A stretch of DNA of 64,000 nucleotides, from assembly GCA_022774865.1 (NCBI GenBank), contig JALFLH010000031.1, forward strand, positions 26,225 through 90,224, read 5' to 3'. The notes beneath the pieces were generated by a model that had not been told where the DNA came from, searched no databases, and saw nothing but the letters and a program-made list of their open reading frames with translations. Of this stretch, positions 10,811 to 36,100 are shown piece by piece. Source of the stretch: Clostridiales bacterium. GTDB taxonomy: Bacteria > Bacillota > Clostridia > Oscillospirales > Oscillospiraceae. Within the stretch, counting starts at the first letter, position 1. Each line of letters opens with the position of its first letter. The translations under genes and the position numbers were made by a program.

Positions 10811-10996
10811 ATGAAAGCAACAGGAATCGTCCGCCGGGTCGACGACCTTGGCAGAATTGTGATCCCCAAAGAAATTCGCAGGACACTGCGCATCCGGGAA
10901 GGCGACCCGTTGTTAACATCATTGACACGGTGGGAAATTTTCAGCTTCGCAATGCTGGATCTGTCAAAAAGGAACCGCTGGGATGGTACATACTGA
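10811..10996 (+). pseudogene. spoVT: spoVT 5' fragment: 33 authentic SpoVT codons (10811-10909) plus a 28-codon tail encoded by the element
   Basis: MKATGIVRRVDDLGRIVIPKEIRRTLRIREGDP is near-identical to the AbrB-type N-terminus of SpoVT. After GDP the sequence (LLTSLTRWEIFSF...) loses all similarity. RBS AAGGAGAG at 10797-10804. Confidence 0.9.
10880..10927 (+). repeat. attL: 9-bp core GGCGACCCG (10901-10909) plus element-side inverted-repeat arm TTGTTAACATCATTGACA (10910-10927)
   Basis: The core is repeated exactly at 35648-35656. The arm is the reverse complement (16/18) of the arm at 35629-35647. Confidence 0.85.
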
Positions 10997-11124
10997 CGAA
11001 AAATGAAGTTTAACGGTATGTATTCGGGAAGGTAAAAATTGGGCATCTGCTATTCAAAGCAGATGCCCGGTTTTGTTGTTGGGGAACTTTTTGTTTAGAA
11101 TGTCGAAGAAATATTCCCTACAAA

Positions 11125-12033
11125 TCAAAATGTGCGCCAGCACTTGGTACGCATGAACTCCACGATCTCGCCGTTGTCCCGGTCCTCGTAATAGGCCACC
11201 AACAGCCGCTTGAACTCCGGTACATGGCTCTCGGGAATGACGATCAGGCCTTGCCCTTTGGAGATCATGTAGTGGTTAGCGAAAATCACCGATGCCCGCT
11301 TGTTGCCATCGTTGAAAATCTGAGTTTTCATGCAATACAAGCACAGCCGGATAGCGGTGTCCACCGGGTCAGTGCCGTCCGAAAGAATGGCATCGATGTT
11401 CTCTTTTACGCTGGTTTCGATGGGCAGGGGCGGAACATAGCTGGTGCCGCCGATGGCAACCGGCACACCCCGGATCCGGCCGCCGTCGGTATAGAAGCCC
11501 TCGTTGACCAGCTTGGCGATGTGGCAGAGGATGTAATAATCCGTAGGATAGCTCAGCACATCCTTGTCCAGAATGAACTCCCAGGCGTGTTTCAAATTCA
11601 GAATTTTCTGCACGTCGGTAGCGGTCATGCCGGATACAATACCGTTTTCGATGATGGTTTCCGTCTGGGGATAGGTGGTGGCCACACCCTCCAGAACAGC
11701 CTGATCATAGATGTTGGCTTTCATATTCGCCCGGGCGAAATCCAGATTCAGCATGACCCGGGGGGAGAGTTCCGTCTCCTCGTAACCCAGCGCAGCCAGT
11801 TCTCTTTCTACACGGCGGATGTGCTTGCGCAGCTCCCGGGATTCTCTGGCATTGCGGAGCAGAAGCTGGTACAGCTCGTCGGAATAGGCATCCACATAGG
11901 TAGAGGTCAGGCGGCTGCCCACCCGCTTGCGGACATAGAGATATTTCTGACCCTCCCGGTCCTTGATCTCCGGGGAGCCATCATAGGGAATCAGATTCAA
12001 CCGCGCCTGAAAGTCTGCCTTGACACAACCCAA
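11125..12033 (-). CDS. Fic-domain protein with a degenerate active-site motif, possibly 5'-truncated
   Basis: Fic core helix region with QIFNDGNKRAS (11290-11322) in place of HxFx(D/E)GNGR. The only in-frame start upstream of the conserved N-region is a TTG at 12033 with no RBS, and it overlaps the MFS ORF. Confidence 0.6.
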   Translation of the reverse strand: MGCVKADFQARLNLIPYDGSPEIKDREGQKYLYVRKRVGSRLTSTYVDAYSDELYQLLLRNARESRELRKHIRRVERELAALGYEETELSPRVMLNLDFARANMKANIYDQAVLEGVATTYPQTETIIENGIVSGMTATDVQKILNLKHAWEFILDKDVLSYPTDYYILCHIAKLVNEGFYTDGGRIRGVPVAIGGTSYVPPLPIETSVKENIDAILSDGTDPVDTAIRLCLYCMKTQIFNDGNKRASVIFANHYMISKGQGLIVIPESHVPEFKRLLVAYYEDRDNGEIVEFMRTKCWRTF

Positions 12034-14519: not shown

Positions 14520-15255
14520 AAAGGCAACCACCGACGCCGGTGGACATAAAGAGTTCCACTTATGGATAGAAAAAGAAAACCTCCGATGATAGAGTAGTGT
14601 CAGGTTCGCCAACCGACAACAGACAAAATCAAAGGAGGTTATCCAAATGGATAAAGATAGTTTAGCACAAAGTAAGTGGAACTGCAAATACCATATTGTG
14701 TTTGCGTCGAAATACCGACGCCAGATAGGCTATAAGCAAATCTCAGCAGACATAGGGCAGATCATCCGCGCCCTGTGCGCAAGAAACGGGATAGAAATTC
14801 TCGAGGCAGCAGCAATGCCGGATCACATACACCTGTATGTGAAGATACCGCCAAAGTATAGCGTGTCAGAGGTAATGGGATATCTGAAAGGAAAGAGCAG
14901 TCTGATGATCTTCGACCGGCATGCGAATCTGAGGTACAAGTACGGAAACCGGCATTTCTGGTGCCGCGGCTACTATGTGGACACGGTAGGGCGTAATGAG
15001 AAGGCAATACAGGAATATGTACGGAATCAGTTGCAAGAGGATGTAGCCGCGGACCAGATCCGTCTGAAAGAATTTACCGACCCGTTTACAGGTGAGCCAG
15101 TAAGCAAGGGCAAATAAAGAGCCGCCCCCCTAGAAGGGGGCAGCCCGTAATAGTGCTGCGATTGGCGAACTTTTTTCATGCGCCTTGAGGCGCGGTTGTC
15201 CTACGCCCTTATAGGGCTTGTGCAAGCCACCGGCTACGCTGGTGGTCTTGACCTA
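14520..15255 (+). mobile_element. IS200/IS605-family insertion sequence (tnpA only); boundaries approximate
   Basis: Y1 transposase flanked by short subterminal hairpins: CCACCG..CGGTGG at about 14528-14545, and CCCCC..GGGGG, GCGCC..GGCGC, CCACC..GGTGG at 15125-15245. Confidence 0.6.
14647..15117 (+). CDS. tnpA: IS200/IS605 family Y1 (HUH) transposase TnpA
   Basis: HUH motif PDHIHLYV, catalytic Tyr region FWCRGYYVDTVG, 156 aa, RBS AAAGGAGG. Confidence 0.92.
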   Translation: MDKDSLAQSKWNCKYHIVFASKYRRQIGYKQISADIGQIIRALCARNGIEILEAAAMPDHIHLYVKIPPKYSVSEVMGYLKGKSSLMIFDRHANLRYKYGNRHFWCRGYYVDTVGRNEKAIQEYVRNQLQEDVAADQIRLKEFTDPFTGEPVSKGK

Positions 15256-15265: not shown

Positions 15266-16090
15266 TCAGTCGTTGTGTTCCTTCCGGTATTCGGCAACAA
15301 CTTCCATGAAGTCTTTGACGCGCTGCGGGTCGATGTGATTTTCAAAAACGCCGTCCACCTTGAACGTTGTCCCAACAAGCGCACCGTCAGAAATGTCGAG
15401 CTTTTGCTTGATGTTGTCACGGCGGCAGCCGGTGGCAGCAAAAACTGGAACACCCCGGCCTTTGATCGCCTCACGCACATCTTCGATCAGCGTGCTGTTC
15501 GCCTCGATCCCGGCATGGGCGCCGGTCATGCAGAAGGCGTCCGGCTTGCAGTCAAAAATGATGGCCTTAGCCAGTTCCGGATATTTTACGGGTACAAGGT
15601 TGTCGTCCGATTCGTTGTTGAGAAAATAAAGAAGCCGGCAGTTGTCCAGACCGAGCGCCTTTTTGCGGCGGAGGATCTTGGAGGTATCGATATCCGAGAT
15701 GCCCTCCACGCCAACGTAAGCGCCGGTAAAAGTACCGCGGATAAAGCTCGCGTCAACCGCGGCGGCAAGATCAAGCGCTGCCATGGGGTCGCACTCCAGA
15801 TCGATGCCGTAAGGCACAGTGATTTCGCTCATCAATTCGCCAATGACGCGAGCCATGCCGCACGGCTGAACCGGGTCAACATCGCTCTGATACGGCAGAC
15901 TGAATTCGTTGGAAAAAAGAATGCCGTCAACGCCGCCATCCTGCAGCGCGTGCAGATCGCGGCGGGCATCTTCCACGGTTTTTTTCATGGAATCGCCCTT
16001 TTTGTATAATGGATCGCCGGGGAATGCATTGAGATGCAGCAGCGCAATAACGGGTTTTTCGTGACCAAACAGCTCTTTGCACCAGCTCAT
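15266..16090 (-). CDS. BtpA/SgcQ-family TIM-barrel protein
   Basis: KPVIALLHLNAFPGDPLY N-terminus and overall BtpA/SgcQ family pattern, 274 aa. Last gene of the minus-strand operon. Confidence 0.75.
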   Translation of the reverse strand: MSWCKELFGHEKPVIALLHLNAFPGDPLYKKGDSMKKTVEDARRDLHALQDGGVDGILFSNEFSLPYQSDVDPVQPCGMARVIGELMSEITVPYGIDLECDPMAALDLAAAVDASFIRGTFTGAYVGVEGISDIDTSKILRRKKALGLDNCRLLYFLNNESDDNLVPVKYPELAKAIIFDCKPDAFCMTGAHAGIEANSTLIEDVREAIKGRGVPVFAATGCRRDNIKQKLDISDGALVGTTFKVDGVFENHIDPQRVKDFMEVVAEYRKEHND

Positions 16091-16229
16091 TTTCTATTCC
16101 TCCCTGTATAAATGCAAATAAGATAAACAATTTACGATCTCATTGTACCACTCTACGTACTATATGTCATTCGCCGAAGAGCTTAGCTGTTTGACGTGCG
16201 CTCCTCTTGTTGACCGATGCTTCCTATGT

Positions 16230-17102
16230 TCAATGCTCCGCATCGACCCAGCGGCAGCGGCGCAGCCATTCCGCCGTTTTCCTTGTCGCGGCATCGGGAT
16301 CATCAAAATACATTTGGTTGTTGATCTCCATGGTGATCGTACCGGTATAATTGTGCCGTACCAGCGTTTCGAGATATCCCTCTACATCGTTGGTTCCTTC
16401 ACCGGGAACCATGTGCCCCTCCGGGCAGCCGTCCGCCAGATGAAGGTGGTTGATCGTTCCAAACGTTTCAAAATAGGATTCAACCGTTTCGTTGCCTGCG
16501 GCGGCGGCAACGCAGTCAATGCATGCCGTGAGATTGGGTGAGCCGACGGCGTCGATTAGCCGTTTAAGCGTCGTTTTATCGTAGCACAGATTGGATTCAT
16601 AACGCTGCAGCTGCTCCATCACCATTTTAACGCCCAGTTTTTCCGCATAGGCATTAATCTCACGCAGCGATTCAATCGACCGGTCATATGCCGCCGCCTC
16701 GTCCTCGTCAAACAGGCAATAGCCCATCTGTGGGAAGAAATAGATCGCACCGAGTGCCTTGGTGTCCTCCAGATACCCTTTTACGATTTCCAGGCTGTTT
16801 CGCCGTACATATGGGTTGGAAGACGCGACATTGATGGGGTACAGGCAAATCTGCTCTGCGGTGAAAACCGAGACCTTCAGGCCGTTGTCGTCCAGCATGC
16901 GGCGGATCTCGCCGATGCGCCGGTCACGCTGCCCGGGGGCAGTGTCAAAATAGCTGTAGTGCGGTGCGCCGCCCCAGAGATCAACGTAGCGGAAGCCCGC
17001 TTTTGCGATGGATGCGAGCGCATATTCGAGACTATAGAGCTGATAGTTGACGCTCATTACGCCAAACTGCGAAAATTTCAGTTTATCCATCGTTCCCCTC
17101 AT
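16230..17102 (-). CDS. sugar-phosphate isomerase/epimerase (xylose-isomerase-like TIM barrel), FrlC-like
   Basis: VDLWGGAPH and HLHLADG..GHMVPGEG match the layout of fructoselysine 3-epimerase FrlC. ATGA overlap with the upstream gene. Confidence 0.8.
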   Translation of the reverse strand: MRGTMDKLKFSQFGVMSVNYQLYSLEYALASIAKAGFRYVDLWGGAPHYSYFDTAPGQRDRRIGEIRRMLDDNGLKVSVFTAEQICLYPINVASSNPYVRRNSLEIVKGYLEDTKALGAIYFFPQMGYCLFDEDEAAAYDRSIESLREINAYAEKLGVKMVMEQLQRYESNLCYDKTTLKRLIDAVGSPNLTACIDCVAAAAGNETVESYFETFGTINHLHLADGCPEGHMVPGEGTNDVEGYLETLVRHNYTGTITMEINNQMYFDDPDAATRKTAEWLRRCRWVDAEH

Positions 17103-17935
17103 TTCCAGAGCTGCTGCAGGACCTGCAGCGTTTTTTCATAGCTCTCATCCGGTGCATCCGCGTATTCCTCCATGGTGACTTCCAGCGTTATGGGGCCGGT
17201 GAAATCGTATTTCTCCATGGCTGCAAGGTGCGCGGCGATGTCCTGTGTGCCGTCGCCGAGGATGAACTGTTCGTCTTCGTCGTCGCTGTCAGAAAGCTGC
17301 ACAGCCCGTATCCGGGAGCCAAAGCGGCGGAAATAATCCTCCAGCGTTTCGCCGCCGGCTACTACGGCGCAGGTGTTCACGCTCAGCGCCAGACGCTCAT
17401 CTCCAACTCGCTCAAGTATCTCCGCCACCGCATTGCTGTTGGGCGTCATACCGGAAATGCAGGAGGAAACGTTTTGCAGCAGGATCGTCACGCCTTTTTC
17501 TCCGGCGTAGCCGCAAAGCTCACGCAGACACTCGCAGGCGTAGCTCAGCATTTCCTCATGCGGCTTGTCCATGGCGTTTTTGCCCGGATAGACCACCACC
17601 ATGCCGCAGCCGAGATATGGGGCACAGTCGATATAAAATTTCAGCTGCTCCATGCTCTTTTCACGCAGGAACGAGTCCGCGGAAGCAATATTGATCGGGA
17701 GAAAGTTCTGCTCCGGTTCGATGACCGGCACCGTGATGCCAGCCTCGCGGATCTGCCGGGCAAAAGCTGCGGGGTCGAAGCGCTCCTGCTCATAGATCGT
17801 GAAGTGCGGATGGCAGCCGCTCAGCTCAACTCTCGTCAGGCCGAGCCTTCGCACGGCGCGGAGAAAGTAGGAAAGGGAATACCGTCGGTAGGTCATATTG
17901 CTGATACCGACGCGCTCTTGAATCGTGCCTTTCAT
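17099..17935 (-). CDS. second sugar-phosphate isomerase/epimerase (xylose-isomerase-like TIM barrel)
   Basis: AP_endonuc_2-type pattern (VELSGCHPH, VQLSDSDDEDEQFILGDG), 278 aa. Confidence 0.8.
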   Translation of the reverse strand: MKGTIQERVGISNMTYRRYSLSYFLRAVRRLGLTRVELSGCHPHFTIYEQERFDPAAFARQIREAGITVPVIEPEQNFLPINIASADSFLREKSMEQLKFYIDCAPYLGCGMVVVYPGKNAMDKPHEEMLSYACECLRELCGYAGEKGVTILLQNVSSCISGMTPNSNAVAEILERVGDERLALSVNTCAVVAGGETLEDYFRRFGSRIRAVQLSDSDDEDEQFILGDGTQDIAAHLAAMEKYDFTGPITLEVTMEEYADAPDESYEKTLQVLQQLWK

Positions 17936-17952
17936 TTTTTCTTCCTTTCTTT

Positions 17953-18381
17953 TTATTCGCCCAGGATTACAAGAGAAATCGTGCGTTCCTGAGGACCGTC
18001 AAACTCTGCAAGGTATATTTCCTGCGCGCGGCCACAGACAATTTCTCCGTCTAAGATGGGGAGAACGCAGTGATTGCCAGAGAGCATGGATTTCAGATGT
18101 CCTGTCGGGTTTCCTGCCATGGCTCCGTATTCTCGAAGGAACCGCGCATGATAGTATTCACCATCCTCGGGGAAAAGCAGACCGAGCTGGCGGAGAATAT
18201 CGTCTTCCAGACATTCAAGTTTTTCGTTAATCATTATGCCGGTGGTCGTATGCTGCGTAATGACATACGCAACACCGTTGTCGACCCCCGACAGTCTCAC
18301 CTCCCGGCGGACATCCGCGCTTATGGGCAGGAGCTGGTTATATGCTTTGGTCATGTATTCCAGTGCAACATGCTTTACCAT
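17953..18381 (-). CDS. YjbQ/UPF0047 family protein (secondary thiamine-phosphate synthase-like)
   Basis: HTTTGIMINE and GHLKSMLSG motifs typical of YjbQ, 142 aa. Confidence 0.8.
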   Translation of the reverse strand: MVKHVALEYMTKAYNQLLPISADVRREVRLSGVDNGVAYVITQHTTTGIMINEKLECLEDDILRQLGLLFPEDGEYYHARFLREYGAMAGNPTGHLKSMLSGNHCVLPILDGEIVCGRAQEIYLAEFDGPQERTISLVILGE

Positions 18382-19232
18382 TACAGTGCCTCCCCAATAA
18401 ACTCCAACGCATTCCCGCCGAAAATCAGCTCTCGTGTGCTCTCACGCATATCCATATTCCGCAGTGCCTTTATCATACGCCGCTGTTCCAGCCGCGGGTC
18501 ATCCGAGCCGAACATAATCTGATGTCGCAGGCTGCGGTCAATCCACCCGGGGCCGATATCCACTTCCAGACACTGATGATAAAACTGGCGCGGATCGTCG
18601 AAATACAGCATGGCTGTGTCCGTATACACATTCGGATATTTGAGCATAAGCATGCACACCTCACGCACCCACGGCCAACCAAAGTGTGCAAGGCACATGC
18701 GGAGCTTTGGATACCGGAATGCCACCTCTTCAAATTCCAACGGATGTGAATGCTTTGTGAGTGTTCCCGGCTCCATGGATACGCCGGCATGGAATATGAT
18801 GGGCTTATCGTACCGCAGGCAGATCTCATAGAGCGGCGTGAGCAGCTCATCCGATGGGGAAAAATGCTGCTTGGACGGATGAAGCTTCAACCCTTTCAGG
18901 CCAAGCTGCGCAAAGGCGTACTCCAACTCCTCTGCCGCTGCGGCGGAATGCGGATCCACGCTGGCAAAGCCGACGAATTTCCCGGGACGCAGCCGCACAA
19001 GGTCTGCAATCTGGCAGTTTGTGACAAGTGCGCCACCGCGGCTCTCCGGCAACGCAAGCGGAAGAAGAAACAGCTTATCTATTCCGGATTCCGCCATATC
19101 CGCATCCCATTGCCGAAGACCAAAGGCTTCGGTTTTATAAAGTCCCATCTCCTGCGCGTTACGCCGGTACTTTTCTTCTCCGAGATTCAGCTCCTCTATG
19201 AATGCCGGATGGACGTGGGCGTCAATCAGCAA
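18381..19232 (-). CDS. amidohydrolase-2 family metal-dependent hydrolase
   Basis: LIDAHVHP metal-binding motif near the N-terminus. Start placed at TTG 19232, 10 nt after GGAAAGGAGG. The ORF-track start at 19328 would overlap the upstream kinase by 107 nt. Confidence 0.75.
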   Translation of the reverse strand: MLIDAHVHPAFIEELNLGEEKYRRNAQEMGLYKTEAFGLRQWDADMAESGIDKLFLLPLALPESRGGALVTNCQIADLVRLRPGKFVGFASVDPHSAAAAEELEYAFAQLGLKGLKLHPSKQHFSPSDELLTPLYEICLRYDKPIIFHAGVSMEPGTLTKHSHPLEFEEVAFRYPKLRMCLAHFGWPWVREVCMLMLKYPNVYTDTAMLYFDDPRQFYHQCLEVDIGPGWIDRSLRHQIMFGSDDPRLEQRRMIKALRNMDMRESTRELIFGGNALEFIGEAL

Positions 19233-20031: not shown

Positions 20032-20044
20032 CTTTTCTCTCCTC

Positions 20045-26220: not shown

Positions 26221-26283
26221 CGCGCTCCATTTATTGTACATTTTAGACAAAATTCGTTGGGTTTTTTATGTGTTATCGCAATA

Positions 26284-26312: not shown

Positions 26313-26319
26313 GATGGTG

Positions 26320-26336: not shown

Positions 26337-26459
26337 CGAGATGTGACAGTATTTCCTTTCCACCGCCGGAGCCTTCGTCCAAACGGACTTCCGGCCCTCT
26401 CGCAGGGGAACCACAAAATGGAGACTGAGGGAGTCTCAGAAAAATAAGGAGGATTACAC

Positions 26460-28004
26460 GTGGAAACATTAAAGGAATTCTTTACCCCCAAGCGAATCAT
26501 AGCTTATGGGCTGATGATTCTCGCGTTCGTGGCCGTTGCGCTGTTTGCTCCGCACGAGCAGGTTGGCATTGGAGAGTATCAAGAGCTGATCGAGCTTAAC
26601 GACGGTGCTCTTCCGGAGGAGCTTTCGACCTTTTACGGTGCATGGACACTTGCCATACCCGCGCTGATGTTCGTATTTTGTATTCTGACGCACGGCTTCC
26701 TTGAAGCATTTATTTGGTCCACTGCACTCGTCACATTCATGCGCTTTCGTCTGGATTTTCTGCCCGCCATGGTCGAAACCCAGCTCGGCGCGATGATGGA
26801 CTATGACAACATCCGCATGATCGTTCTCTACCTGCTGATCGGCAGCGTTCTCGCCGCTATATCGAAGGGCGGCGGTGCAAGGGCTTTTGCTGAGATTGTC
26901 AGAAAAAAAGCCAAAAGCTCCAAGCTGGCGCTTGTCATCATGTGGATCATGGATGTCTTCCTGTCCATTGACGACGAGCTGTCCGCATTCACCACTGGCA
27001 CCGCCATCACCCCGCTCAACGACGGCTACGGTATTCCCCGTGAGAAATCTGCTGTCATGATTCGTCTGACCGCCGTTGCCCCGGCCAACCTCTGGCAGCT
27101 TGGCGCGTGGGTTGTGTTTGTCGCGGTTCTTCTGGAGCAGTCCGGCTTTGCCGCGTCGGGTCAGGGCGTCGTGGAATACATGAAGTGCGTTCCCTTCATG
27201 TTCTTCCCAATCATTGCCCTCATTCTCGCTCTTCTGTATGCACTCGGCATCGTACCCGACATCGGCCCGGTCAAGCGTGCTGTGAAGCGCGTCAAGGAAG
27301 GCGGTCCCATCGCCCCTGTTGCCTCCGACGGTTCTACCAAGAATGATGCTTCCGTCAGCAGCACGGAGATTTTTACCCATGTGAAGCCGCGCCTTATCAA
27401 TTTCATTCTTCCCGTTGTTGTCTTGGTTGGTGTCTCCTTCCTCTATGACTTTGATATCATGGTCGGCATCATTGCCTGTCTGGTTTTCACATTTATTCTC
27501 TTCGTCGCGCAGGGCGTCTGCACCCCGACCGAGTTCATCGAAGACGTATTTCTTGGCGGTATGCACGATATGCTGATGCTGACCGCGCTCTTTGCCATTG
27601 GCGTCAACTTCTGTACCCAGCTTGGCGAGATGGGCTTTGCTGAGTATATCATCAGCATCACCGCAAGCTTCCTCTCTCCCAAGATGTTCCCGTTCATCGT
27701 TTTTGTGGTGTTCTCCATCACAGAGTTCCTGTGCAGCTTCAACTGGACGCTTTACATGATGGCTCTGCCGATCATCGTCCCGATGTGCGGCATCATCGGC
27801 GCCAATCCCTACATCGCTGTTGCGGCTCTCATCTGCGCGGGCGTTTGGGGTTCCATGGGCTGCATGTACTCCGACGGCGCTCTCGTCGCCGCCGCCGCTA
27901 CCGACTGCGACGCGTATGAGGCGTCTTCCGCCGCTCTGCCCTATATGTTGATCTGCGAGGTCTTGAGCGCTATACTGTTCCTCGTCGCAGGCTTCATCTT
28001 CTGA
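26460..28004 (+). CDS. NhaC-family (Na+/H+ antiporter-like) membrane transporter
   Basis: Polytopic, 514 aa. The segment SIDDELSAFTTGTAITPLNDGYGIPREKSAVMIRLTAVAP resembles the conserved NhaC-family loop. GTG start 7 nt after AAGGAGG. Confidence 0.65.
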   Translation: METLKEFFTPKRIIAYGLMILAFVAVALFAPHEQVGIGEYQELIELNDGALPEELSTFYGAWTLAIPALMFVFCILTHGFLEAFIWSTALVTFMRFRLDFLPAMVETQLGAMMDYDNIRMIVLYLLIGSVLAAISKGGGARAFAEIVRKKAKSSKLALVIMWIMDVFLSIDDELSAFTTGTAITPLNDGYGIPREKSAVMIRLTAVAPANLWQLGAWVVFVAVLLEQSGFAASGQGVVEYMKCVPFMFFPIIALILALLYALGIVPDIGPVKRAVKRVKEGGPIAPVASDGSTKNDASVSSTEIFTHVKPRLINFILPVVVLVGVSFLYDFDIMVGIIACLVFTFILFVAQGVCTPTEFIEDVFLGGMHDMLMLTALFAIGVNFCTQLGEMGFAEYIISITASFLSPKMFPFIVFVVFSITEFLCSFNWTLYMMALPIIVPMCGIIGANPYIAVAALICAGVWGSMGCMYSDGALVAAAATDCDAYEASSAALPYMLICEVLSAILFLVAGFIF

Positions 28005-28107
28005 CCCACTATCAAAACCAACATGGCGGCGGTAAGTCTCTACTTGCCGCCGCCGTATTCTACACCGCCGGGCCGATCCCGGCGAGCCGATTGCGCAAGG
28101 AGGGCAT

Positions 28108-29625
28108 ATGGCAAAGTATTTTATGGGGATTGATGTCGGAACATACGAGAGCAAGGGCGTCATTATCAACGACAAGGCAGAAGTCGTCTGCTCCGCAGCC
28201 ACGCCGCACGGGCTGGAAAACCCCAAGCCGCATTACTTCGAGCACGACGCTGATACCGTCTGGTGGGGCGATATCTGCAAACTGACTAAGACGCTGTTGG
28301 AAACGTCCGGTCTCGCCAATACCGAGATCGCTGCTTTTGGATGCAGCACGCTTGCCGCCGACGTGCTGCCGGTCGATGAAAACTGCACGCCGCTGCGCAA
28401 AGGCATTCTGTACGGTATTGACTCCCGCGCCACAGAAGAGATCAAATATCTGGAAGAATACTACGGTGACCGTCTCGACGAGCTCTGGGGCGGCGAGGAA
28501 CTGTGTTCCTCCGACTGCATGCCCAAGGTGCTCTGGATCAAAAACAACGAGCCGGAAGTCTACGAGAAGACTTATAAATTCCTTACGGCTTCCTCCTACA
28601 TCACCGCCAAGCTCACCGGAAAATACGTCATCGACCGCTACCTCGCCGTTTCGTCCTTCATTCCCTGCTATCGTCCCGACCTCAGCATCGACGACAAGCT
28701 CGCACGTGAATGCTACTGCCGCGGCGATCAGCTGGCCGAGGGTCATGAGGTCACCGATGTTGTCGGCTACGTCACTGCCGAGGCCGCACGGGAGACTGGG
28801 CTCGCCGAAGGAACGCCGGTCATTACCGGTACCGACGATTCCGGCGCAGAGGCCATCAGTGCCGGGGTGTTGCAGCCCGGCGATCTGATGGTGCAGCTCG
28901 GCTCCACCTGCTATATTATTTACTGTTCCGATCAGCTCATCCACGACGACCGCATTTGGGAAGAGGACTCCCTGATCCCAGGCCGCTACAGCATCGACGG
29001 CGGCACGAACGCCGCCGGCGCGCTAACGAAGTGGATGCGTGACACCTTCTTTCCCGACCTTGTCCGGGAACAGGAAGCTGGCGGAGAAAACGCCTTCACC
29101 GCGCTCACAAAGCTCGCTGCCAACGTTCCGGCCGGTGCGGGCGGGCTGGTAGTTTTGCCGTACTTCTCCGGCGAGCGCACCCCGATCAACGACAGCGAAG
29201 CCAAGGGTATCATCTTCGGACTTCAGTTCCACCACACGCGCGATCAGATCTACCGCGCCGGGCTGGAGGGCGTCGCCTGCTCGGTAGCACAGCACATCGA
29301 CATTCTCGAAGAACACGGGCTGAAGATCAATAATCTCATGTGCACCGGCGGCGGCACGCGCAACCCGGTCTGGCTGCAGATCATTGCTGACATGACCGGT
29401 CACGAGGTCAAAACGCCGGAGGTGACGCTCGGCGCATCTTACGGTGACGCGCTCATGGCGGGCATTGGCGTTGGCTGCTTCCAAGGCTTCCCCGATCTGT
29501 CGCGGTATATCCGCGTCGGCAACGTGTACCGTCCCGACCCCGAAAAGGCCGGACTGTACGCCAAAATCAAGGATATCTACGGCAAGCTCTACGAAGCAAA
29601 CAAGGATCTCATGCACGAGCTGTAA
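28108..29625 (+). CDS. FGGY-family carbohydrate kinase (xylulokinase-like)
   Basis: MGIDVGTYESKGV N-terminus, GTDDSGAEAISAGV and GGGTRNPVWLQIIADM motifs, RBS AAGGAGG. Confidence 0.88.
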   Translation: MAKYFMGIDVGTYESKGVIINDKAEVVCSAATPHGLENPKPHYFEHDADTVWWGDICKLTKTLLETSGLANTEIAAFGCSTLAADVLPVDENCTPLRKGILYGIDSRATEEIKYLEEYYGDRLDELWGGEELCSSDCMPKVLWIKNNEPEVYEKTYKFLTASSYITAKLTGKYVIDRYLAVSSFIPCYRPDLSIDDKLARECYCRGDQLAEGHEVTDVVGYVTAEAARETGLAEGTPVITGTDDSGAEAISAGVLQPGDLMVQLGSTCYIIYCSDQLIHDDRIWEEDSLIPGRYSIDGGTNAAGALTKWMRDTFFPDLVREQEAGGENAFTALTKLAANVPAGAGGLVVLPYFSGERTPINDSEAKGIIFGLQFHHTRDQIYRAGLEGVACSVAQHIDILEEHGLKINNLMCTGGGTRNPVWLQIIADMTGHEVKTPEVTLGASYGDALMAGIGVGCFQGFPDLSRYIRVGNVYRPDPEKAGLYAKIKDIYGKLYEANKDLMHEL

Positions 29626-29759: not shown

Positions 29760-30146
29760 TTACCGGCAGACGAGCTCGTCGTTTTCGACGTCCACCGTGA
29801 GCGTGCTGCCCGCGGCGAGATCGCCGGAGAGAATGGCTCTTGCCAGCAGCGTTTCCACGCTGCTCTGGAGATACCAGCGCAGCGGACGCGCGCCGTAGAG
29901 CGGATCGTAGCCACGCTCGATGATAAGCTCCTTCGCCTTGTCGGTGATGCAGAGCTTGAGTGAGCGGTCGGCCAGGCGCTTCTTGAGCCCTTCGACCATG
30001 ATGTCGATGATGCCGGTGAAGTTGTCTTTCGTGAGCGGCTTGAAGAGGATCATCTCATCGAGACGGTTCAGAAACTCCGGGCGGAACGCGCGGTGCAGCT
30101 CGCCCATGACGGCGCTCTTCGCCGAATCGGTGATATTACCCTCCAT
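29760..30146 (-). pseudogene. clpB: 3' fragment of a clpB/clpA-type AAA+ chaperone gene (D2-small domain only)
   Basis: FRPEFLNRLDEMILFKPL and YDPLYGARPLRWYLQSSVE are the ClpB C-terminal signatures. The roughly 700 N-terminal residues are absent. The frame is open only to 30224, with no ClpB similarity upstream of about 30150. Confidence 0.8.
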
Positions 30147-30286
30147 ATCATCGAAGCTGGGCGGGTGCTGCTCGATGTGTGTTTTCAGGGTGTCAAAGAA
30201 TTGTTTTATAATATCACCGTCCTTTTAAGGTTTGGGTACAGGGAGGATGATTCCAATTAAGATTGCGTGTACAGGATTCTTCCGGT

Positions 30287-31114
30287 TCATTTCTGTTTCA
30301 ACTCCAAGGAGTATCTCAGAACATGACTCAGAAGTTTCCTCGGTGGAACGCCAAACTTTTCTGCCAGTCGGATTAGTTCCTCATCAATCTGATCCAGGTT
30401 ATCTTCCTCACATTGTAAAACAATCTCTTGGTTGGCAGTCCAGCCGACTGTAAGGCCGTCAGGAACCGCACCCAGTTTTTCAAACAGTCGTTGACTTGCC
30501 AAGTTTCGAGGTTCAATTCTGACACAAAAAACATGTACCCCCAAACGCGTCTGGATCTCCTTTAACATTGCAGATACCGCACGGTAACCGATTCCTCTCC
30601 TGGTCCACTCAGGCCGCAATTCGATGCCAATTTCCCATGGCTCCTGCAATAGATTGTTAATCCCACAGTAGCCGATATAGCTTCCGTCAGAATGAATCGA
30701 CAGAGTCAATCGTTTGCTTGCAATATGTTCTTCCCAGAGCATATTGCAGTAAGTCGGTTCCTTCAGCATATGTTTTGTGACCAGATATGCTCTTTTAATC
30801 TCCAGATAGCCTTCACGGTCAGATTCCTGCACCCGTCTCATGGTAATTCTATTCCCAGCAGATATCACATTGCCCGCTCCCCAGAATTTCTGGTTAAGAA
30901 TCTGACAACGCTGTTCCTCGCCGGCAATATCTGCAAGTGCATCTGCATGGGAATCCTCTGTGCAATTTCGTAGGTAATCGGTAAGTTCTTTCTTCTTTTC
31001 CTCGAACGGCTTGCCGTCATTAGCTTCCAATAATTCCAGTACATCCCTAAGAATTGCCTCGCGTATATACTTCTCAGCGTTTTGCGTAACAGTTTTCTTC
31101 TCTGTCTGTTCCAT
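30287..31114 (-). CDS. GNAT-family N-acetyltransferase with an extra N-terminal domain
   Basis: Acetyl-CoA loop RRGIGYRAVSAML and RimJ/L-like core. Start at ATG 31114 after GGAGGAGAAAAGG. Region is visibly more AT-rich than its surroundings. Confidence 0.75.
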   Translation of the reverse strand: MEQTEKKTVTQNAEKYIREAILRDVLELLEANDGKPFEEKKKELTDYLRNCTEDSHADALADIAGEEQRCQILNQKFWGAGNVISAGNRITMRRVQESDREGYLEIKRAYLVTKHMLKEPTYCNMLWEEHIASKRLTLSIHSDGSYIGYCGINNLLQEPWEIGIELRPEWTRRGIGYRAVSAMLKEIQTRLGVHVFCVRIEPRNLASQRLFEKLGAVPDGLTVGWTANQEIVLQCEEDNLDQIDEELIRLAEKFGVPPRKLLSHVLRYSLELKQK

Positions 31115-31396
31115 CCTTTTCTCCTCCGTAATAATCGTTTTCCTACCCTCATTGTAATCCATCCGGCAGCCGATAGCAATACACAAAGAAATAACCCTCT
31201 ACCTCTTGCCCACTCACTGCAACCGTAGAAGGTTATTCCTTTTGGGTGGTGGGTACCATGTCCATCATTGATGCTAGCGGCTTATCCCTCCTTCATTCAG
31301 GGATGGTGCTACATTCGCAGCGCCATCCCTCACCATCCTGTTCTTTTGTTTATAATTCGTTCATTTGACAAACCATCCTCCCATTGATATAATAAA

Positions 31397-31410
31397 CAAA
31401 CATATGTTTC
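31397..31410. promoter_or_regulatory. LexA (Cheo)-box-like palindrome CAAACATATGTTTC upstream of tnpV
   Basis: The 12-bp perfect palindrome AAACATATGTTT matches CGAACATATGTTCG at 11/14 positions. Lies between TTGATA and TATATT promoter-like hexamers. Confidence 0.3.
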
Positions 31411-31468
31411 TATATTATATCAGGTAAGCAAAACATAAAATCAAATTCGCCACAAAGGAGGAATGGCA

Positions 31469-31819
31469 ATGAAACCCAAGCTGACCTATATCCGAAGCGG
31501 AGACTACTGGATACCCGATCTCAAACTGAAAAGCACCGAACAGCATCCCCTGAATAAGTATGGGCGGATGCGCCGGACCTTCCTGCGGGAGCACAGACCC
31601 ATGCAATACAGCCTTTTGACGATGCAGCAGAAGCTGTTTCCCCATTTGTGGGAGGTTCAGGAAGCCGCTGAGCGCCGATTGGAGCAGATCATGGACGGAT
31701 TGTTGAAACAGAATCCGGGTCCGGACAAAGCAGATGACCAGCTTGGATGGGTACAGCATAGGAACTGCCTGAAAGCTCAGGCGGAAGAAATCATCTTTTC
31801 AGAGCTGATTTTTGCATGA
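31469..31819 (+). CDS. tnpV: TnpV-family transposon protein
   Basis: KLTYIRSGDYWIPDL...YGRMRRTFLREHRPMQYSLL...EEIIFSELIF fits the TnpV family pattern (Tn4451-type elements). GGAGG lies 7 nt before ATG 31469; an alternative ATG is at 31463. Confidence 0.8.
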   Translation: MKPKLTYIRSGDYWIPDLKLKSTEQHPLNKYGRMRRTFLREHRPMQYSLLTMQQKLFPHLWEVQEAAERRLEQIMDGLLKQNPGPDKADDQLGWVQHRNCLKAQAEEIIFSELIFA

Positions 31820-33223
31820 AAAAGCGGCGGGGGTGTAGTGAAACGGTGCTGTTGACAAATACCCCGAAAAAGCAGAATAACCTTTGAAAATAGCCCCCAA
31901 ACAATGGAAAAAGACCGCATTTGCGGCCTTTACCAGTCGTATTAAGTTCATAGCGCAGGCAGACAAGAGGCATTGTTCGGTTACTCGTTCAATGCCTCGT
32001 TTGTATGTCCGCCTTAAATTGTGCTCTGCTTTCTGGTGGGAGAAATTGCCCTCGCACCAGATCTTCCGCAGCCTCAGCGCAGCAAAGTATTCCGGCGTAT
32101 TCCGGTTCTTCGCCTGTTCCTGTCTGGCTTCTTCATGCAACAGCCGCTCCACCATGCGGCTGTTTTTGGAGCTGCCTACGCATTGCTGCCGACAGGGACA
32201 GTTGTTGCAGTCTTGCCGTGTTGCCTGATATCGTTTCTTATGCCCGTTCTTGTTGTAGCAGGAGTATGCCAGTGTTTTCCCTTGTGGACAGATATAGGCA
32301 TCTTCTTGCGGATCGTAGATGAATGCTTCCGGCTCGAAGCCTTCCGTGTAGGACGGCGCATTGTTCGGCTTCCTCTTTTTGGGGATATATGTCCGAATCC
32401 CACGCTTTAACATAGCATCGTAGACCTCGCTGTTGTCGTAACCGGCATCCGCGCAGACGGCTTCTGTTTCAAAGCCAAACTTGTCAATCTGTGTTTCCAA
32501 GCGACTGGCATGGGGCGTGCAGTCGTTTACATTCCCCGGCGTAACGAAAACATCCGTGATAATGCCCGATTCGGCATCACTGGTCTGGTGATTCAGATAG
32601 CAGAAAGCATTGGGTTTTCCGGGACGATTCATCAGCCCGGACTCCGGATCGGTGGTGCTTTTAGTAACTGTTTTCGTCTTTTCAGGATAGGTGACAGGTT
32701 CATCCAGCAGCCCTGCTTCCAGAGCTTCTCTGTCCAGCTTCTTCACATACTCAGAAGGCGTATCCGGAACCTCGATGACTTCCCGCTTTTCCTTTGCGGC
32801 ATTTGCCAGAATATGTGTGGAATCCGTCAGCAGAAGCTTTCCGGTTACCAGCCCTGCCGCCATACACTTGCGGACGACCTCGTCAAAAATATCCTGAAAC
32901 AGGGTTGTACCTCCGAATTTTCGGTGGCGAAGCTGGGAAATGGTAGAGTGATCCGGAACAGGCTCGTCAAAGTCAATGCCCAGAAACCAGCGGAACGCGA
33001 TATTGACCCGAACCTCCTGCTCCAGCTTCCGCTCGGATGGAATGCCGTAAAGGTATCCCAGAAGGAGCATTTTCACCAGAAGCACAGGATCGATGGAAGG
33101 CCGGCCGACTCTGGCATACAGCGGTTCAACGATATCGTAGATGAAGCTGAAATCTACACTCCGCTCCAGATCGCGAAGAAAATGCTTTTCCGGCATCAGT
33201 TCCTCCAGCGTCAGAAAAGTCAT
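31799..33223 (-). CDS. IS1182-family DDE transposase
   Basis: N-terminal GRPSIDPVLLVKMLLLGYLYGIPSERKLE, the DDE region (LTDSTH, ADAGYD) and a Cys-rich insert. Start at ATG 33223 (MTFLTLEEL). The ORF runs through the left IR and stops in flanking DNA. Confidence 0.88.
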   Translation of the reverse strand: MTFLTLEELMPEKHFLRDLERSVDFSFIYDIVEPLYARVGRPSIDPVLLVKMLLLGYLYGIPSERKLEQEVRVNIAFRWFLGIDFDEPVPDHSTISQLRHRKFGGTTLFQDIFDEVVRKCMAAGLVTGKLLLTDSTHILANAAKEKREVIEVPDTPSEYVKKLDREALEAGLLDEPVTYPEKTKTVTKSTTDPESGLMNRPGKPNAFCYLNHQTSDAESGIITDVFVTPGNVNDCTPHASRLETQIDKFGFETEAVCADAGYDNSEVYDAMLKRGIRTYIPKKRKPNNAPSYTEGFEPEAFIYDPQEDAYICPQGKTLAYSCYNKNGHKKRYQATRQDCNNCPCRQQCVGSSKNSRMVERLLHEEARQEQAKNRNTPEYFAALRLRKIWCEGNFSHQKAEHNLRRTYKRGIERVTEQCLLSACAMNLIRLVKAANAVFFHCLGAIFKGYSAFSGYLSTAPFHYTPAAFSCKNQL

Positions 33224-33341
33224 TTTCAACTGCTTGCCGCCATCTCGCTTCAGCATACACTTCAACCCCGTTTTTCTTTTATTGTACCATAATTCCGGTG
33301 AAAAATCGAGATTTCAGAGTTTGTCAACAGCACCGAAACAC
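31838..33341 (-). mobile_element. IS1182-family (IS5-like DDE) insertion sequence, about 1.5 kb
   Basis: Perfect 16-bp terminal inverted repeats CGGTGCTGTTGACAAA (31844-31859) and TTTGTCAACAGCACCG (33320-33335) enclose the transposase gene. Confidence 0.8.
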
Positions 33342-33591: not shown

Positions 33592-33855
33592 ATGCGGATT
33601 CACATGGACGAAGAAAAGAAGATCGCGGAGATCTGGCTGACCAAAGCGGAAAGCGATGACCCGGCAGTGGATGCCAGATTGAAACCCTTCTACAAGGAAT
33701 GTAAGGATCACAAGTATCTGGCGGTAGTGTACCGCTCCGGCAGGGAAGACCTTCTGGAAACCACCAAAGATCTGCTCCGGCACAACTTGAGCAGCTATGT
33801 GCATCCGCAGCCGGTTAGAAAACCAAGAACAAGAAGTTATGACATGGGGCACTGA
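33592..33855 (+). CDS. small conserved-looking hypothetical protein directly upstream of the recombinase
   Basis: 87 aa, RBS AAAGGAG. Same strand as the recombinase and 88 nt upstream of it. No family recognised. Confidence 0.5.
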   Translation: MRIHMDEEKKIAEIWLTKAESDDPAVDARLKPFYKECKDHKYLAVVYRSGREDLLETTKDLLRHNLSSYVHPQPVRKPRTRSYDMGH

Positions 33856-33879: not shown

Positions 33880-33908
33880 TTGCATTTTCCGAAATCACGA
33901 TATACAAT
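33880..33908 (+). promoter_or_regulatory. candidate promoter of the recombinase gene
   Basis: TTGCAT (33880-33885), 17 nt, TACAAT (33903-33908). The -10 region TATACAAT also resembles the mother-cell sigma-E -10 element CATACAnT. Confidence 0.5.
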
Positions 33909-33943
33909 GTTATTATATATACACAGCAAGGAAGTGAACAACA

Positions 33944-36100
33944 TTGGAAGTATTTGGTTACACAAGAATCTCCGTTGACCTGGATGAGGACAGCCGGGAG
34001 AATACCAGTATCGAAAACCAGAAGAAAATCATTACGGATTTCGTGGCGTCCACCTTCCCGGATGCCCACCTGACGCTGTTTGAGGACCGGGACCGTTCCG
34101 GCTACACCTTCTCCCAGCGAGAGAGCTACCAGAAAATGCGGGATCGAATGATGTCTGGGGAGTGCACCATTCTGGTGGTCAAGGACTTCTCCCGGTTTTC
34201 CAGAAGAAACAGCTTGGGACTGCTGGAGCTGGAAACCCTGCGGGATGCGGGGATCCGGATTATTTCCATCGGTGACGGCATTGACTATCCCACCAAGGAC
34301 GACTGGATGTTGATTCAGTTCAAGTTTCTGATGAATGAGATGCCGGTTACGGACACCTCCCGAAAGATCAAGCAGATCATCCAGAGCCGCCAGAAGGACG
34401 GCAAATGGGTCTGCGCCGTTCCCTATGGCTACCGGATCATCAACACCAAGGCCATGACCTATGAGATTGACCCGCCCGCCGCGGAGGTGGTGCGGGAAAT
34501 CTTCCGGCTGTACAACAACGGCTGGGGCTACAAGAAGATTGCCAATTACCTGACGGACAACGGCGTTCCCACCCCCCGGGCCAACGAAATTTCCCAGAAG
34601 GAAGCTGCCGGAATCCCCACCAAAATCCGCAGCAGCACCGTTTGGAATACCGCCACGCTCTGCGGCTTGCTGGCAAATGACTTCTACATCGGCACCCTGC
34701 GGCAGAAGAAGTATGTCCGCAAGGGAATCAACGGAAAAGACCAGAAGGTGGGGGACGAGGAGCATATTGTCATCGAAAACGCCCACACCCCCATCATTGA
34801 CCCCCGCACCTTTGCCTATACTCAGGAGCAGATGAAGCTGCGCACCAAAAGCAACTACCGGGGCGAGAAGAAGTATGCTACGGACTACTCCGGCTTCCTG
34901 TTCTGTGGGGACTGCGGAAGTCCCATGTTCTCCCTGTCCCGGCCGGATATCCCTGCCGCCTATACCTGCGGCACTTACCACCGCAGAGGACTGAAGGGCT
35001 GCACCTCCCACCACATCCGGGTGGATACCCTGGACGATCTGCTGAAACGCTATCTCCGGCAGGTTCGGGACAATTCTTCTGCCATGCTGGAGGAGCTGGA
35101 AACCGCCATCCGGGAGCAGCCCCAGCGGGAGGAGGAGATCGGCAAAACCATCGACTCCGTTCAGGTTCAGCTGGTGCAGGCCAAGGAGCAGCTCAAGAAT
35201 ACCCTGAAGCGCAAGCTGTTGGACACCATGGGGAAGGCGCCGGAAACTGCCGCCATCATTGAGGAAACCTACACGGAAATTGAAGACGAGTTGACCCAGC
35301 GGATTGCCGGTCTGGAAAAGCAGATTGATGCCGGGAATACCCTGCGGAACAATATGCTCAAGGTTAACCGGTCTGCGAAAACCGTCATCGATGTGTTTGA
35401 CGACATTCTCAGCAAGCCCACCCTGGACAAACGGGATATTTCCTTCTTGGTAGAGCGCATCAGTGTGTATACCGACCATCTGGATGTGAAGCTGAAGCCG
35501 GACATTGATACCCTGCTGAATCTGACCCCCGATCATGAGGACTCCATAAATTTTTCGACGGACAGTAAGGATATCGCATCCATAACCATCGTCCAGAGGT
35601 CCACGCACCAGAAGGACAAGGTCTTTACTGTCAATGTTGTTAACGAGGGCGACCCGCTGGAAATTTATACGGAAAAGGACGGGGGCGTCATTTTCCGCAA
35701 GTATTCCCCGATGGGGGATTTGCAGGAATTCGCTGCACAGATGTGCGAATCCATCGGCACGGCCACCGGCCGGATTGCCGCGATATCGGATCGGGATACC
35801 ATCATCGCGCTGGCGGGCGCACCCAAGCGGGAGCTGGTGGATAAGCCCAATTCGCAGGCGCTGGACAAGCTGATGGAGCAGCGCAAGAATTACCGCTATC
35901 AGGACGGGGACACGCCCATCCGCGCATCCGACACTACGGAAAAGTATCATCTGGGCGTGGCGGCACCCATTCTCAGTCAGGGTGATCTGATGGGGTGCGT
36001 CATGCTGCTGCTGCAGGAGAATGACAAGCCGCTGGCCGAATCCGACCAGTATCTGGCGCAGACGGCCGCCGGCTTCCTGGGCAGGCAGATGGAGAACTGA
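33944..36100 (+). CDS. large serine recombinase (568 codons) fused in frame, across attR, to the 3' 150 codons of spoVT
   Basis: Resolvase catalytic domain (GYTRISVD, VVKDFSRFSRR), recombinase domain, Cys zinc ribbon (CGDCGSPM...CGTYHRRGLKGC) and a coiled coil. No stop codon before the junction at 35648. TTG start at 33944. Confidence 0.9.
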   Translation: MEVFGYTRISVDLDEDSRENTSIENQKKIITDFVASTFPDAHLTLFEDRDRSGYTFSQRESYQKMRDRMMSGECTILVVKDFSRFSRRNSLGLLELETLRDAGIRIISIGDGIDYPTKDDWMLIQFKFLMNEMPVTDTSRKIKQIIQSRQKDGKWVCAVPYGYRIINTKAMTYEIDPPAAEVVREIFRLYNNGWGYKKIANYLTDNGVPTPRANEISQKEAAGIPTKIRSSTVWNTATLCGLLANDFYIGTLRQKKYVRKGINGKDQKVGDEEHIVIENAHTPIIDPRTFAYTQEQMKLRTKSNYRGEKKYATDYSGFLFCGDCGSPMFSLSRPDIPAAYTCGTYHRRGLKGCTSHHIRVDTLDDLLKRYLRQVRDNSSAMLEELETAIREQPQREEEIGKTIDSVQVQLVQAKEQLKNTLKRKLLDTMGKAPETAAIIEETYTEIEDELTQRIAGLEKQIDAGNTLRNNMLKVNRSAKTVIDVFDDILSKPTLDKRDISFLVERISVYTDHLDVKLKPDIDTLLNLTPDHEDSINFSTDSKDIASITIVQRSTHQKDKVFTVNVVNEGDPLEIYTEKDGGVIFRKYSPMGDLQEFAAQMCESIGTATGRIAAISDRDTIIALAGAPKRELVDKPNSQALDKLMEQRKNYRYQDGDTPIRASDTTEKYHLGVAAPILSQGDLMGCVMLLLQENDKPLAESDQYLAQTAAGFLGRQMEN
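35629..35656 (+). repeat. attR: inverted-repeat arm TGTCAATGTTGTTAACGAG (35629-35647) plus core GGCGACCCG (35648-35656)
   Basis: Exact repeat of the 10901-10909 core. The arm is complementary (16/18) to 10910-10927. Confidence 0.85.
35657..36100 (+). pseudogene. spoVT: spoVT 3' segment (codons 34-180, rest of the AbrB fold plus the GAF-like domain)
   Basis: LEIYTEKDGGVIFRKYSPMGDLQEF...TAAGFLGRQMEN is colinear with SpoVT residues about 34 to the end. No independent start or RBS. Confidence 0.9.

Follow-up and report, generated by a model that had tools for sequence, protein, structure and literature searches.

The sporulation intervening elements described so far include skin in sigK, SPbeta in spsM, vfbin in spoVFB, vrin in spoVR, gin in gerE, and yin in yabG (PMC5595907, PMC4191935). 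The genes split by skin and SPbeta are expressed in the mother cell, and it is from this terminal cell that both elements excise (PMC4191935, PMC5595907). Two other groups share features of design with the locus reported here: Tn4451/Tn4453-type elements, which use a 2-bp crossover (PMC3158075), and the archaeal "suicidal" SSV-type tyrosine integrases, whose att site lies within the int gene and which a review calls exclusive to Archaea (PMC8371274). Here we describe an integrated element that splits the sporulation gene spoVT in a 64,000-bp stretch of DNA (hereafter the window; assembly GCA_022774865.1, contig JALFLH010000031.1, positions 26,225 to 90,224 of the forward strand) from a Clostridiales bacterium of the Oscillospiraceae. 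The element spans 24,747 bp from core to core (10905-35651), and it encodes a large serine recombinase (LSR) that carries its attachment site, attP, inside its own open reading frame (ORF).

The 5' fragment of spoVT (10811-10909, + strand) translates as MKATGIVRRVDDLGRIVIPKEIRRTLRIREGDP and comprises codons 1-33, the first half of the AbrB-type DNA-binding domain. The 3' fragment (35657-36100, + strand) translates as LEIYTEKDGG...FLGRQMEN followed by a stop codon and comprises codons 34-180, which encode the second AbrB half and the GAF-like SpoVT_C domain. Translation and alignment confirmed the coordinates of both fragments, which an initial annotation of this DNA had read as the first 33 residues of SpoVT and their continuation. 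That annotation had also pointed out the same 9-bp sequence, GGCGACCCG, at both junctions, and a search of the window found exactly these two copies (10901-10909 and 35648-35656). At least two copies of the 9-mer also occurred in 27 of 100 shuffles, within chance, and we rejected the repeat as evidence in itself. The case for a split gene therefore takes its weight from coding continuity and comparative data.

Joining the fragments gives an in-frame protein of 180 amino acids (33 + 147), as had been predicted. Residues 1-179 of this conceptual joint align with residues 1-177 of Bacillus subtilis SpoVT (PDB 2w1t, E 6e-45), end to end and without a break at the junction. The joint also covers positions 1-180 of the 180 positions of the TIGR02851 spore_V_T model, at 214.8 bits; this score is slightly under the curated equivalog cut-off of 235.9, which indicates that the SpoVT encoded here is slightly divergent. 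Among the matches listed, the best for the window SpoVT (83%) are metagenome-assembled genomes (MAGs) named Faecousia or Oscillospiraceae.

When the joint was used as a protein query, four intact SpoVT proteins (P0121-P0124) 99-100% identical to it were recovered. Four contigs from four different samples (L005-L008) are colinear with the conceptual empty site at 98.4-99.1% identity, and their alignments are ungapped at the junction. The presence of an uninterrupted site at this identity in the same species indicates that the insertion is precise and polymorphic within the species. These contigs extend hundreds of bases beyond the junction on both sides, which makes them look like strains without the element and not like minor products of excision. 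The samples with the fused form of the window and those with the intact allele did not overlap, and co-occurrence of attB or attP with attL or attR in one sample was rejected as a sign of excision. Public sequencing runs that contain the window element include SRR14369307 and those underlying ERZ11466806. We detected an identical 718-amino-acid junction ORF on four independently assembled contigs, and the chimeric ORF at attL recurs in other assemblies; the concern raised in the initial annotation that the junctions might be assembly artefacts is thus not supported. Its central proposal, a spoVT gene split by an integrated element, is upheld by the precise insert, the empty sites in the same species, and the LSR adjoining attR. 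Two checks it had suggested, alignment of the joint to SpoVT orthologs and a search for the empty site in relatives, gave the results described above, a contiguous alignment and an uninterrupted gene.

The LSR starts at a TTG codon at 33944, and its codons 1-571 extend to the core at attR (33944-35656, + strand). It contains Resolvase, Recombinase, and Zn_ribbon_recom domains (PF00239 at the N-terminus, PF07508, PF13408), and an alignment of 16 sequences shows no variation at Ser10, Arg8, or Tyr6. Weak full-length matches were obtained to the CcrB and XisF models, and the nearest solved structure is SprA of SPbeta (PDB 9dxh, E 4e-21). The LSR frame has no stop codon before attR and runs in frame into the 3' half of spoVT, creating a 718-amino-acid fusion ORF (33944-36100). 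The initial annotation had missed this continuation, together with the position of the native recombinase C-terminus at the other end of the element. At that left end, a 61-amino-acid chimeric ORF (10811-10996, + strand) sits behind the spoVT promoter and joins SpoVT(1-33) to the 28-residue recombinase tail LLTSLTRWEIFSFAMLDLSKRNRWDGTY. The displaced 3' end of the recombinase gene, identified by homology to the C-terminus of P0018, consists of 28 codons and a stop codon (10910-10996, + strand). A terminator-like hairpin with an 11-bp stem (11041-11068) lies 3' of this stop codon and also faces the Fic gene of the element; a comparable hairpin follows the recombinase stop codon in the relative L009.

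The identity of the tail was established with P0018, an unfused relative LSR of 596 amino acids, which ends in ...VFTVNVINSGDP followed by SQITLALWQRFSFAMLDLAKRQGWN and a stop codon, and this end is homologous to the left-end frame of the window. On the contigs encoding P0018 (L009-L015), the DNA past the core matches the left end of the window element and element genes lie on both sides; this arrangement is a real attP. From the contiguous C-terminus of P0018 and these attP contigs, the 28-residue tail is the native recombinase C-terminus, separated from the rest of the enzyme by integration. The attP site lies within the LSR ORF, and integration partitions the gene, so that its own stop codon and terminator come to lie at the far end of the integrated element.

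The attL core is the 9-mer at 10901-10909 (+ strand), with an inferred crossover dinucleotide GA at 10904-10905, and the attL-side arm GTTAACATCATTGAC lies at 10912-10926. The attR site (35630-35656, + strand) consists of the arm GTCAATGTTGTTAAC (35630-35644) and the core (35648-35656, GA at 35651-35652). The attB site is the same conserved 9-mer, which encodes Gly-Asp-Pro at spoVT codons 31-33. The attP site is about 50 bp long, with inverted arms CAATG(T/A)TGTT flanking a 20-bp spacer that has GA at its centre. The conceptual attP of the window has the arms CAATGTTGTT and AACATCATTG and a 20-bp spacer, the same structure as the attP of P0018.

One relative is seen in the three junction states attP, attL, and attR. 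Its attP copy (L009) and attR copy (L265) are 98.8% identical over 10,054 bp, and the match ends exactly at GGCGACCC; L265 encodes the same LSR as L009, here fused to spoVT, and beyond the fusion lie host genes, among them cysS and recA. The attP copy and the attL copy (L164) are 99.99% identical over 8,018 bp, and this match begins exactly at the core. Rare copies at secondary sites narrowed the crossover further: four attL copies (L156, L165, L174, L244) retain only GACCC..., and one attR copy (L261) retains ...GGCGA. These junctions share only GA, and the attP inverted repeat is centred on the same two bases, so the overlap exchanged would be this dinucleotide, and the junction sequences place the crossover there.

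Two LSR copies deviate from these forms. At about 7290-7330 of L261, a truncated copy of the window-type LSR (P0008) is joined, as ...GGCGA directly followed by TACCTC..., to unrelated DNA by sortase and pilin genes; the junction resembles a secondary-site insertion that has only GA in common with the normal target. P0004 (L262, about 7479-7600; L264, about 2418-2540) is an attP-form LSR 97% identical to that of the window. Its core is mutated from GGCGACCCG to GGTGTCCG, which shifts the reading frame, and the protein is truncated at the N-terminus. It appears to be immobilised and decaying, in contigs of 33-80 kb.

The fused arrangement is conserved across the family. Fusions of 711-729 amino acids make up 108 of the 120 closest LSR clusters (68-98% identity), and their junction reads ...VFTVNV(I/V)xxGDP followed by LEI(Y/F)T. 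The same junction was found with LSRs 53-57% identical to that of the window in about nine of the best 80 GTDB species representatives, and at 50-56% identity in IMG/VR records and in a GenBank fecal "Bacteriophage sp." record. About 16 of the best 150 representatives clustered at 50% identity cross the junction, down to an identity of about 40%. Matches to the tail motif in metagenomes (n = 120) comprised 89 attL junctions in spoVT, two attP sites, and a few other sites, and 25 had too little readable frame 5' of the motif for classing; the integrated state thus predominates. No second copy of spoVT, which could have rendered the split harmless, was seen among the best 80 genome loci listed, most of whose hosts are MAGs.

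The displaced tail is conserved as well. Across the best 120 chimera clusters, almost all of which are short chimeras of 57-63 amino acids (some called longer at the N- or C-terminus, up to 100), it follows the consensus [LS][QL]T[TS]L..W..F[SC]FAMLDL[SA]KR..W. Several synonymous codons are in use at the invariant tail residues, in a DNA sample picked with a pattern that itself fixes those residues, and this indicates constraint at the protein level. AlphaFold2, run on a 27-sequence alignment (mean predicted local distance difference test score of 72), predicted an amphipathic alpha helix for the tail, spanning residues 40-54 of the chimera. The possibility that the tail rebuilds the AbrB fold of SpoVT(1-33) was rejected, since the model gives a helix and not the beta3-beta4 hairpin.

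In 164 pairs, LSRs at least 95% identical are joined to SpoVT_C halves only 51-79% identical to each other. Near-identical LSRs on divergent SpoVT halves indicate recent transfer between distant hosts, and judging from these identities the insertions may be recent. The cargo also differs among relatives, with a TRAP transporter and transketolase alongside helicase and methylase genes, a Schlafen-like ATPase, or RhuM and a D5-like primase. The conserved unit is therefore a compact LSR-attP module. An IMG/VR profile scan gave only relatives of at most 64% identity; those with the 3' end on the contig (L096-L099) read into spoVT, and the flanks examined in L096 and L098 contain no virion genes but encode a second recombinase, a D5-like primase, and RhuM. 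For the window element, a single-protein scan of IMG/VR yielded no close relatives, and its plasmid relatives are all below 31% identity. A family member is also present in the complete genome of Intestinimonas butyriciproducens (CP159998.1, assembly GCA_041085325.1). Its fusion (L269, 10001-12166; WP_369518091.1) is called by the Prokaryotic Genome Annotation Pipeline (PGAP) a single 721-amino-acid "stage V sporulation T C-terminal domain-containing protein", and the cargo adjacent to its LSR is a 973-amino-acid Schlafen/AlbA_2 protein. Annotation pipelines conceal the split under this label, and surveys of sporulation genes would consequently miscount spoVT in carriers.

The reading that we favour, with moderate confidence, combines LSR-driven integration and excision with a state-dependent recombinase and sporadic excision, which would make spoVT a reversible on/off locus. 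The junctions show that the LSR recombines attP, in its own ORF, with attB at spoVT codons 31-33 by exchange at GA, precisely and reversibly, cutting both genes and swapping their C-termini in frame. On integration, the LSR loses its native 28-residue tail, the predicted amphipathic helix, and gains SpoVT(34-180), and SpoVT(1-33) gains the LSR helix, stop codon, and terminator. Precise excision restores both genes. While the element is integrated, spoVT would be functionally null, because the AbrB DNA-binding fold is halved and the modelled tail does not replace the missing hairpin. The LSR would be transcribed in vegetative cells from a sigma-A-type promoter and would repress itself through an att-like operator. 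By analogy with the archaeal "suicidal" integrases and with IntP/IntX of phage Mx8, the C-terminal swap would render LSR activity dependent on the integration state and thereby stabilise integration. Excision would be occasional and unprogrammed, and spoVT and spore maturation would be toggled reversibly.

The regulatory part of this reading draws on motifs around the LSR start. In six relatives, a vegetative-type promoter, TTGxxx-17-TACAAT, lies 5' of the LSR. An att-like inverted repeat (33905-33946, + strand), CAATGTTATT and AACAACATTG separated by 22 nt, overlaps the -10 element (TACAAT) and the TTG start codon of the window LSR. The same composite occurs 5' of the LSR in L009 and L099, and within the window only here and in the conceptual attP. 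Within the 64 kb, the 11-mer CAATGWTRTTA is confined to this site and the two att arms; three copies were not reached in any of 100 shuffles. The inverted repeat is thus probably an autoregulatory operator. The LSR, tnpV (a gene further upstream in the element), and orf87, the small ORF just 5' of the recombinase, showed no promoter of the sporulation type; those recognised, for the LSR and tnpV, were all sigma-A-like. A GCATT...ACAAT motif 5' of the window LSR resembles the spoVT promoter, yet this likeness is absent in relatives, and we rejected it as a sporulation promoter. Across the family, no conserved accessory gene or candidate directionality factor was found beside the LSR.

Several observations weigh against this favoured reading. 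The -35 element of the window LSR, TTGCAT, is weak and was not called by a promoter scanner, and it is solely the promoter consensus that suggests sporadic, vegetative excision. The sporulation-specific excision of SPbeta depends on a mother-cell-specific promoter on the directionality factor gene sprB, not on the integrase gene (PMC4191935), and a vegetative LSR promoter accordingly leaves room for developmental control through a further factor. Prevalence is high for an insertion expected to cripple spore maturation (the nine or so of the 80 species representatives mentioned above), and 469 sequences belong to the fused cluster, compared with about 29 for the intact alleles of the same species. 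All 108 fusions retain an intact spoVT 3' half up to the native stop codon, and all 89 attL junctions retain an intact tail ORF. Such an absence of decay in the split halves and tail fits frequent cycling or selection for restorability.

One alternative, which we regard as possible but unlikely, is a developmentally programmed excision in the germ line: the element would leave the chromosome in the forespore once the spoVT promoter fires, giving an intact spoVT for spore maturation, and the circle, its LSR gene full-length again, would be kept in the spore and re-integrate at germination. The trigger could be the SpoVT(1-33)-tail chimera, supplying the helix in trans to the tail-less LSR fusion, or the GAF-like domain, sensing a forespore signal. 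A putative promoter of spoVT, GCATA-N18-ACAATA (10749-10778, + strand), is kept in related Oscillospiraceae loci and is of a forespore type that we take, from the B. subtilis consensus, to be sigmaF/G-like. The spoVT gene of Clostridioides difficile is dependent on sigmaG/sigmaF and not on sigmaE/sigmaK (PMC3738446). By this homology and the motif, the interrupted gene would be a forespore gene and not a mother-cell target like those of the sporulation intervening elements, and terminal-cell excision as in skin could not apply directly. The conserved promoter would now drive the chimera, the only element-derived product under forespore control and the one that carries the helix missing from the LSR. 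Germ-line excision would also be in keeping with the strong conservation of the tail even in integrated copies, the intactness of all split halves, a design that restores both genes, and a high prevalence that suggests a low cost to spore formers. For one relative, attP forms with an intact LSR are common (177 index blocks). Against it stand the lack of a sporulation-type promoter on the LSR, tnpV, and orf87 and of an accessory gene conserved beside the LSR family-wide. In contigs from gut metagenomes, from which spores are under-extracted, attL outnumbers attP by 89 to 2. A forespore precedent is lacking, as the known cases all concern the mother cell, and it is pure conjecture that a circle unable to replicate would re-integrate at germination.

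A bolder form of this idea, which we consider quite unlikely, is that placing attP inside the gene constitutes a germ-line developmental switch. Putting the essential LSR helix under the spoVT promoter and tethering a GAF-like sensor to the LSR would then bring about excision in the forespore when SpoVT is needed, and a circle with a restored recombinase gene would travel in the spore until germination. Were this so, programmed DNA rearrangement would be seen for the first time in a sporulating cell's heritable compartment, and serine-integrase directionality could be set in a new way, without a separate directionality factor.

It is very unlikely, in our view, that the fusion products themselves are selected while the element is integrated, be it as a ligand-gated recombinase, as a dominant regulator of forespore genes, or through a sporulation block that favours the element. 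The in-frame fusion is kept in LSRs down to about 40% identity, the promoters suggest vegetative expression of the fusion ORF, driven by the LSR promoter, and PGAP treats the fusion as one protein. In-frame read-through, however, follows automatically from one ancestral attP-in-ORF design, so that the fusions count as one evolutionary event and not as many independent ones. The LSR fusion bears an orphan AbrB half, the chimera carries a helical tail that does not rebuild a DNA-binding fold, and near-identical LSRs are joined to very different SpoVT_C sequences, all of which argue against a selected function.

Excision in the mother cell or the predivisional cell, as in skin, is highly improbable here. 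The architecture shared by skin, SPbeta, and gin, with an LSR at the edge, a short core, and precise in-frame restoration, speaks for it, and it would imply a mother-cell or early role for SpoVT, unlike in Bacillus and C. difficile. The sigmaG/sigmaF dependence of C. difficile spoVT, as opposed to sigmaE/sigmaK dependence, and the forespore-type motif 5' of spoVT in the window argue otherwise, and excision in the mother cell would leave the forespore without SpoVT. The parallel with skin and SPbeta drawn by the initial annotation accordingly stands for the split gene, the LSR, and the in-frame restoration, but not for a mother-cell target, and no sporulation-specific control of the recombinase was found. 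That the split is an artefact of assembly or annotation, or a decayed pseudogene without any mobile element behind it, can be dismissed as next to impossible. Chance could account for the 9-bp repeat taken alone, but many independent assemblies contain the junctions, precise empty sites exist, relatives have a real attP, and the LSR is intact with its catalytic residues present.

The non-recombinase cargo of the window element amounts to about 20 kb and includes two insertion sequence (IS) elements. Its left part encodes, in order, a Fic protein, an MFS_2 transporter, a TetR regulator, an IS200 transposase, BtpA, two xylose-isomerase-like TIM barrels, a UPF0047 protein, and an Amidohydro_2 protein. 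The right part continues with two PfkB kinases, an Amidohydro_3 protein, a SIS protein, two GntR regulators, a HAD protein, a Na+/H+ antiporter, an FGGY kinase, a ClpB fragment, and a GNAT protein. The region 15266-29625 resembles a single catabolic locus for a sugar or amino-sugar derivative (BtpA, two TIM barrels, two amidohydrolases, two PfkB kinases, SIS, two GntR/UTRA regulators, HAD, the antiporter, and the FGGY kinase). The IS200-type Y1 transposase gene lies at 14647-15117, and the orphan ClpB fragment (29760-30146), a pseudogene remnant, encodes only the C-terminal D2-small domain.

Further right, tnpV (PF14198, E 1.2e-31; ORF 31463-31819, feature 31365-31819, + strand) has a perfect sigma-70-type promoter, TTGACA-17-TATAAT, at 31365-31393. 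An IS1182-like insertion (31845-33334, - strand), which encodes a DDE transposase (DUF772, DDE_Tnp_1_6), separates tnpV from orf87 (33592-33855, + strand); orf87 has no Pfam match and is kept in L001-L004 and L262-L264. The locus L001, 99% identical otherwise, is without the IS1182-like insertion and without an 832-bp segment (29910-30741), which indicates that the island is still undergoing remodelling. The GNAT gene (30287-31186), in its 3' part, and the ClpB fragment both overlap the 832-bp segment.

Among the element ORFs scanned and the Pfam lists, no phage structural, lysis, or packaging domains were found, and the IMG/VR single-protein scan gave no match; a prophage was therefore rejected for the window copy. 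Relaxase, Mob, and type IV secretion system domains were likewise absent from these ORFs and lists, a search that was not exhaustive for small ORFs and oriT. With none of these domains and with plasmid LSR relatives all below 31% identity, a conjugative or mobilisable element or a plasmid origin was set aside as well. The element is an integrative cargo island, neither prophage nor conjugative.

Other insertions also occur in spoVT. A different element splits the gene at about codon 10/11, between ...LTQ(A/S) and D(S/D)LGRVV... (L040, 4933-10516; also L173, L203, L170, L215, L228, L250). In L040, it has three tandem serine-recombinase genes, about 27% identical to the window LSR, and some metagenome contigs carry the codon-10/11 and codon-33 insertions in one spoVT. 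From these sequences, spoVT appears to be an insertion hotspot. In a Faecousia sp. MAG (L023, 9217-10540), a remnant attL chimera with a degenerate tail lies 780 bp 5' of an intact spoVT, and the ribosome-binding and upstream region of spoVT together with its first 33 codons are duplicated. This locus may represent a decayed element or a variant that brings a replacement 5' end.

Members of this family are common among gut Oscillospiraceae, occur likewise in other Clostridia, and carry 20-40 kb of metabolic or defence cargo between genera. It may toggle spore formation and hence transmission. Carriers raise the question of whether they sporulate or not, where and when the element is removed, and how it is retained. 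The location of attP within the ORF could amount to a built-in, state-dependent control of the integrase, which is relevant to LSR-based genome-engineering tools. In line with the initial annotation, which knew of no report of an interrupted spoVT, the literature searched, with a coverage short of all journals, contained no mention of spoVT as an interrupted gene or attachment site. It also held no description of an att-in-ORF design with reciprocal C-terminal exchange for serine recombinases.

Like skin, SPbeta, and gin, the spoVT element is an LSR element that splits a sporulation gene at a short core, and its precise excision restores the ORF in frame; like gin, it has no phage genes (PMC5595907 for gin). 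It differs from the skin/SPbeta type in its target, since the published cases that we found interrupt mother-cell genes, and spoVT would be a forespore, and thus germ-line, gene. The family in this way breaks the mother-cell pattern of the published splitting elements, where excision leaves inheritance unharmed. It differs further in that attP lies inside the recombinase ORF, so that both proteins swap C-termini, and in that no sporulation-specific promoter or directionality factor was found.

Tn4451/Tn4453 (TnpX, TnpV) and the C. difficile Tn6104-like elements resemble the spoVT element in several features: an end-placed LSR, a TnpV homologue (PF14198), a 2-bp crossover (PMC3158075), clostridial hosts, and excision as a circle. 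The crossover dinucleotide of TnpX and TndX is GA. Unlike these loosely targeted elements, the spoVT element is specific for one gene (89 of 120 tail matches in spoVT), its LSR reads outward over the element end, its cargo consists of 20 kb of metabolic genes, and no Mob/TnpZ gene was found in it.

As in the archaeal "suicidal" integrases, att lies in the recombinase ORF, the gene is partitioned and altered by integration, and a compact int-att module is exchangeable between elements of different cargo (PMC8371274). Unlike these tyrosine integrases, the enzyme here is a bacterial serine recombinase, and integration displaces no more than its last 25-28 codons, in whose place a domain of a host protein is joined in frame. 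Bacterial phages offer related designs. In the Myxococcus phage Mx8, att lies within the integrase gene, and integration alters the recombinase (IntP/IntX). In mycobacteriophages with integration-dependent immunity, such as BPs and Brujita, attP lies in an element ORF, and integration alters the C-terminus and the behaviour of the encoded protein. There, however, a repressor gene is split by a tyrosine integrase, a degradation tag is removed, and no host gene is interrupted, whereas in the spoVT element the recombinase and a host sporulation protein exchange their C-termini.

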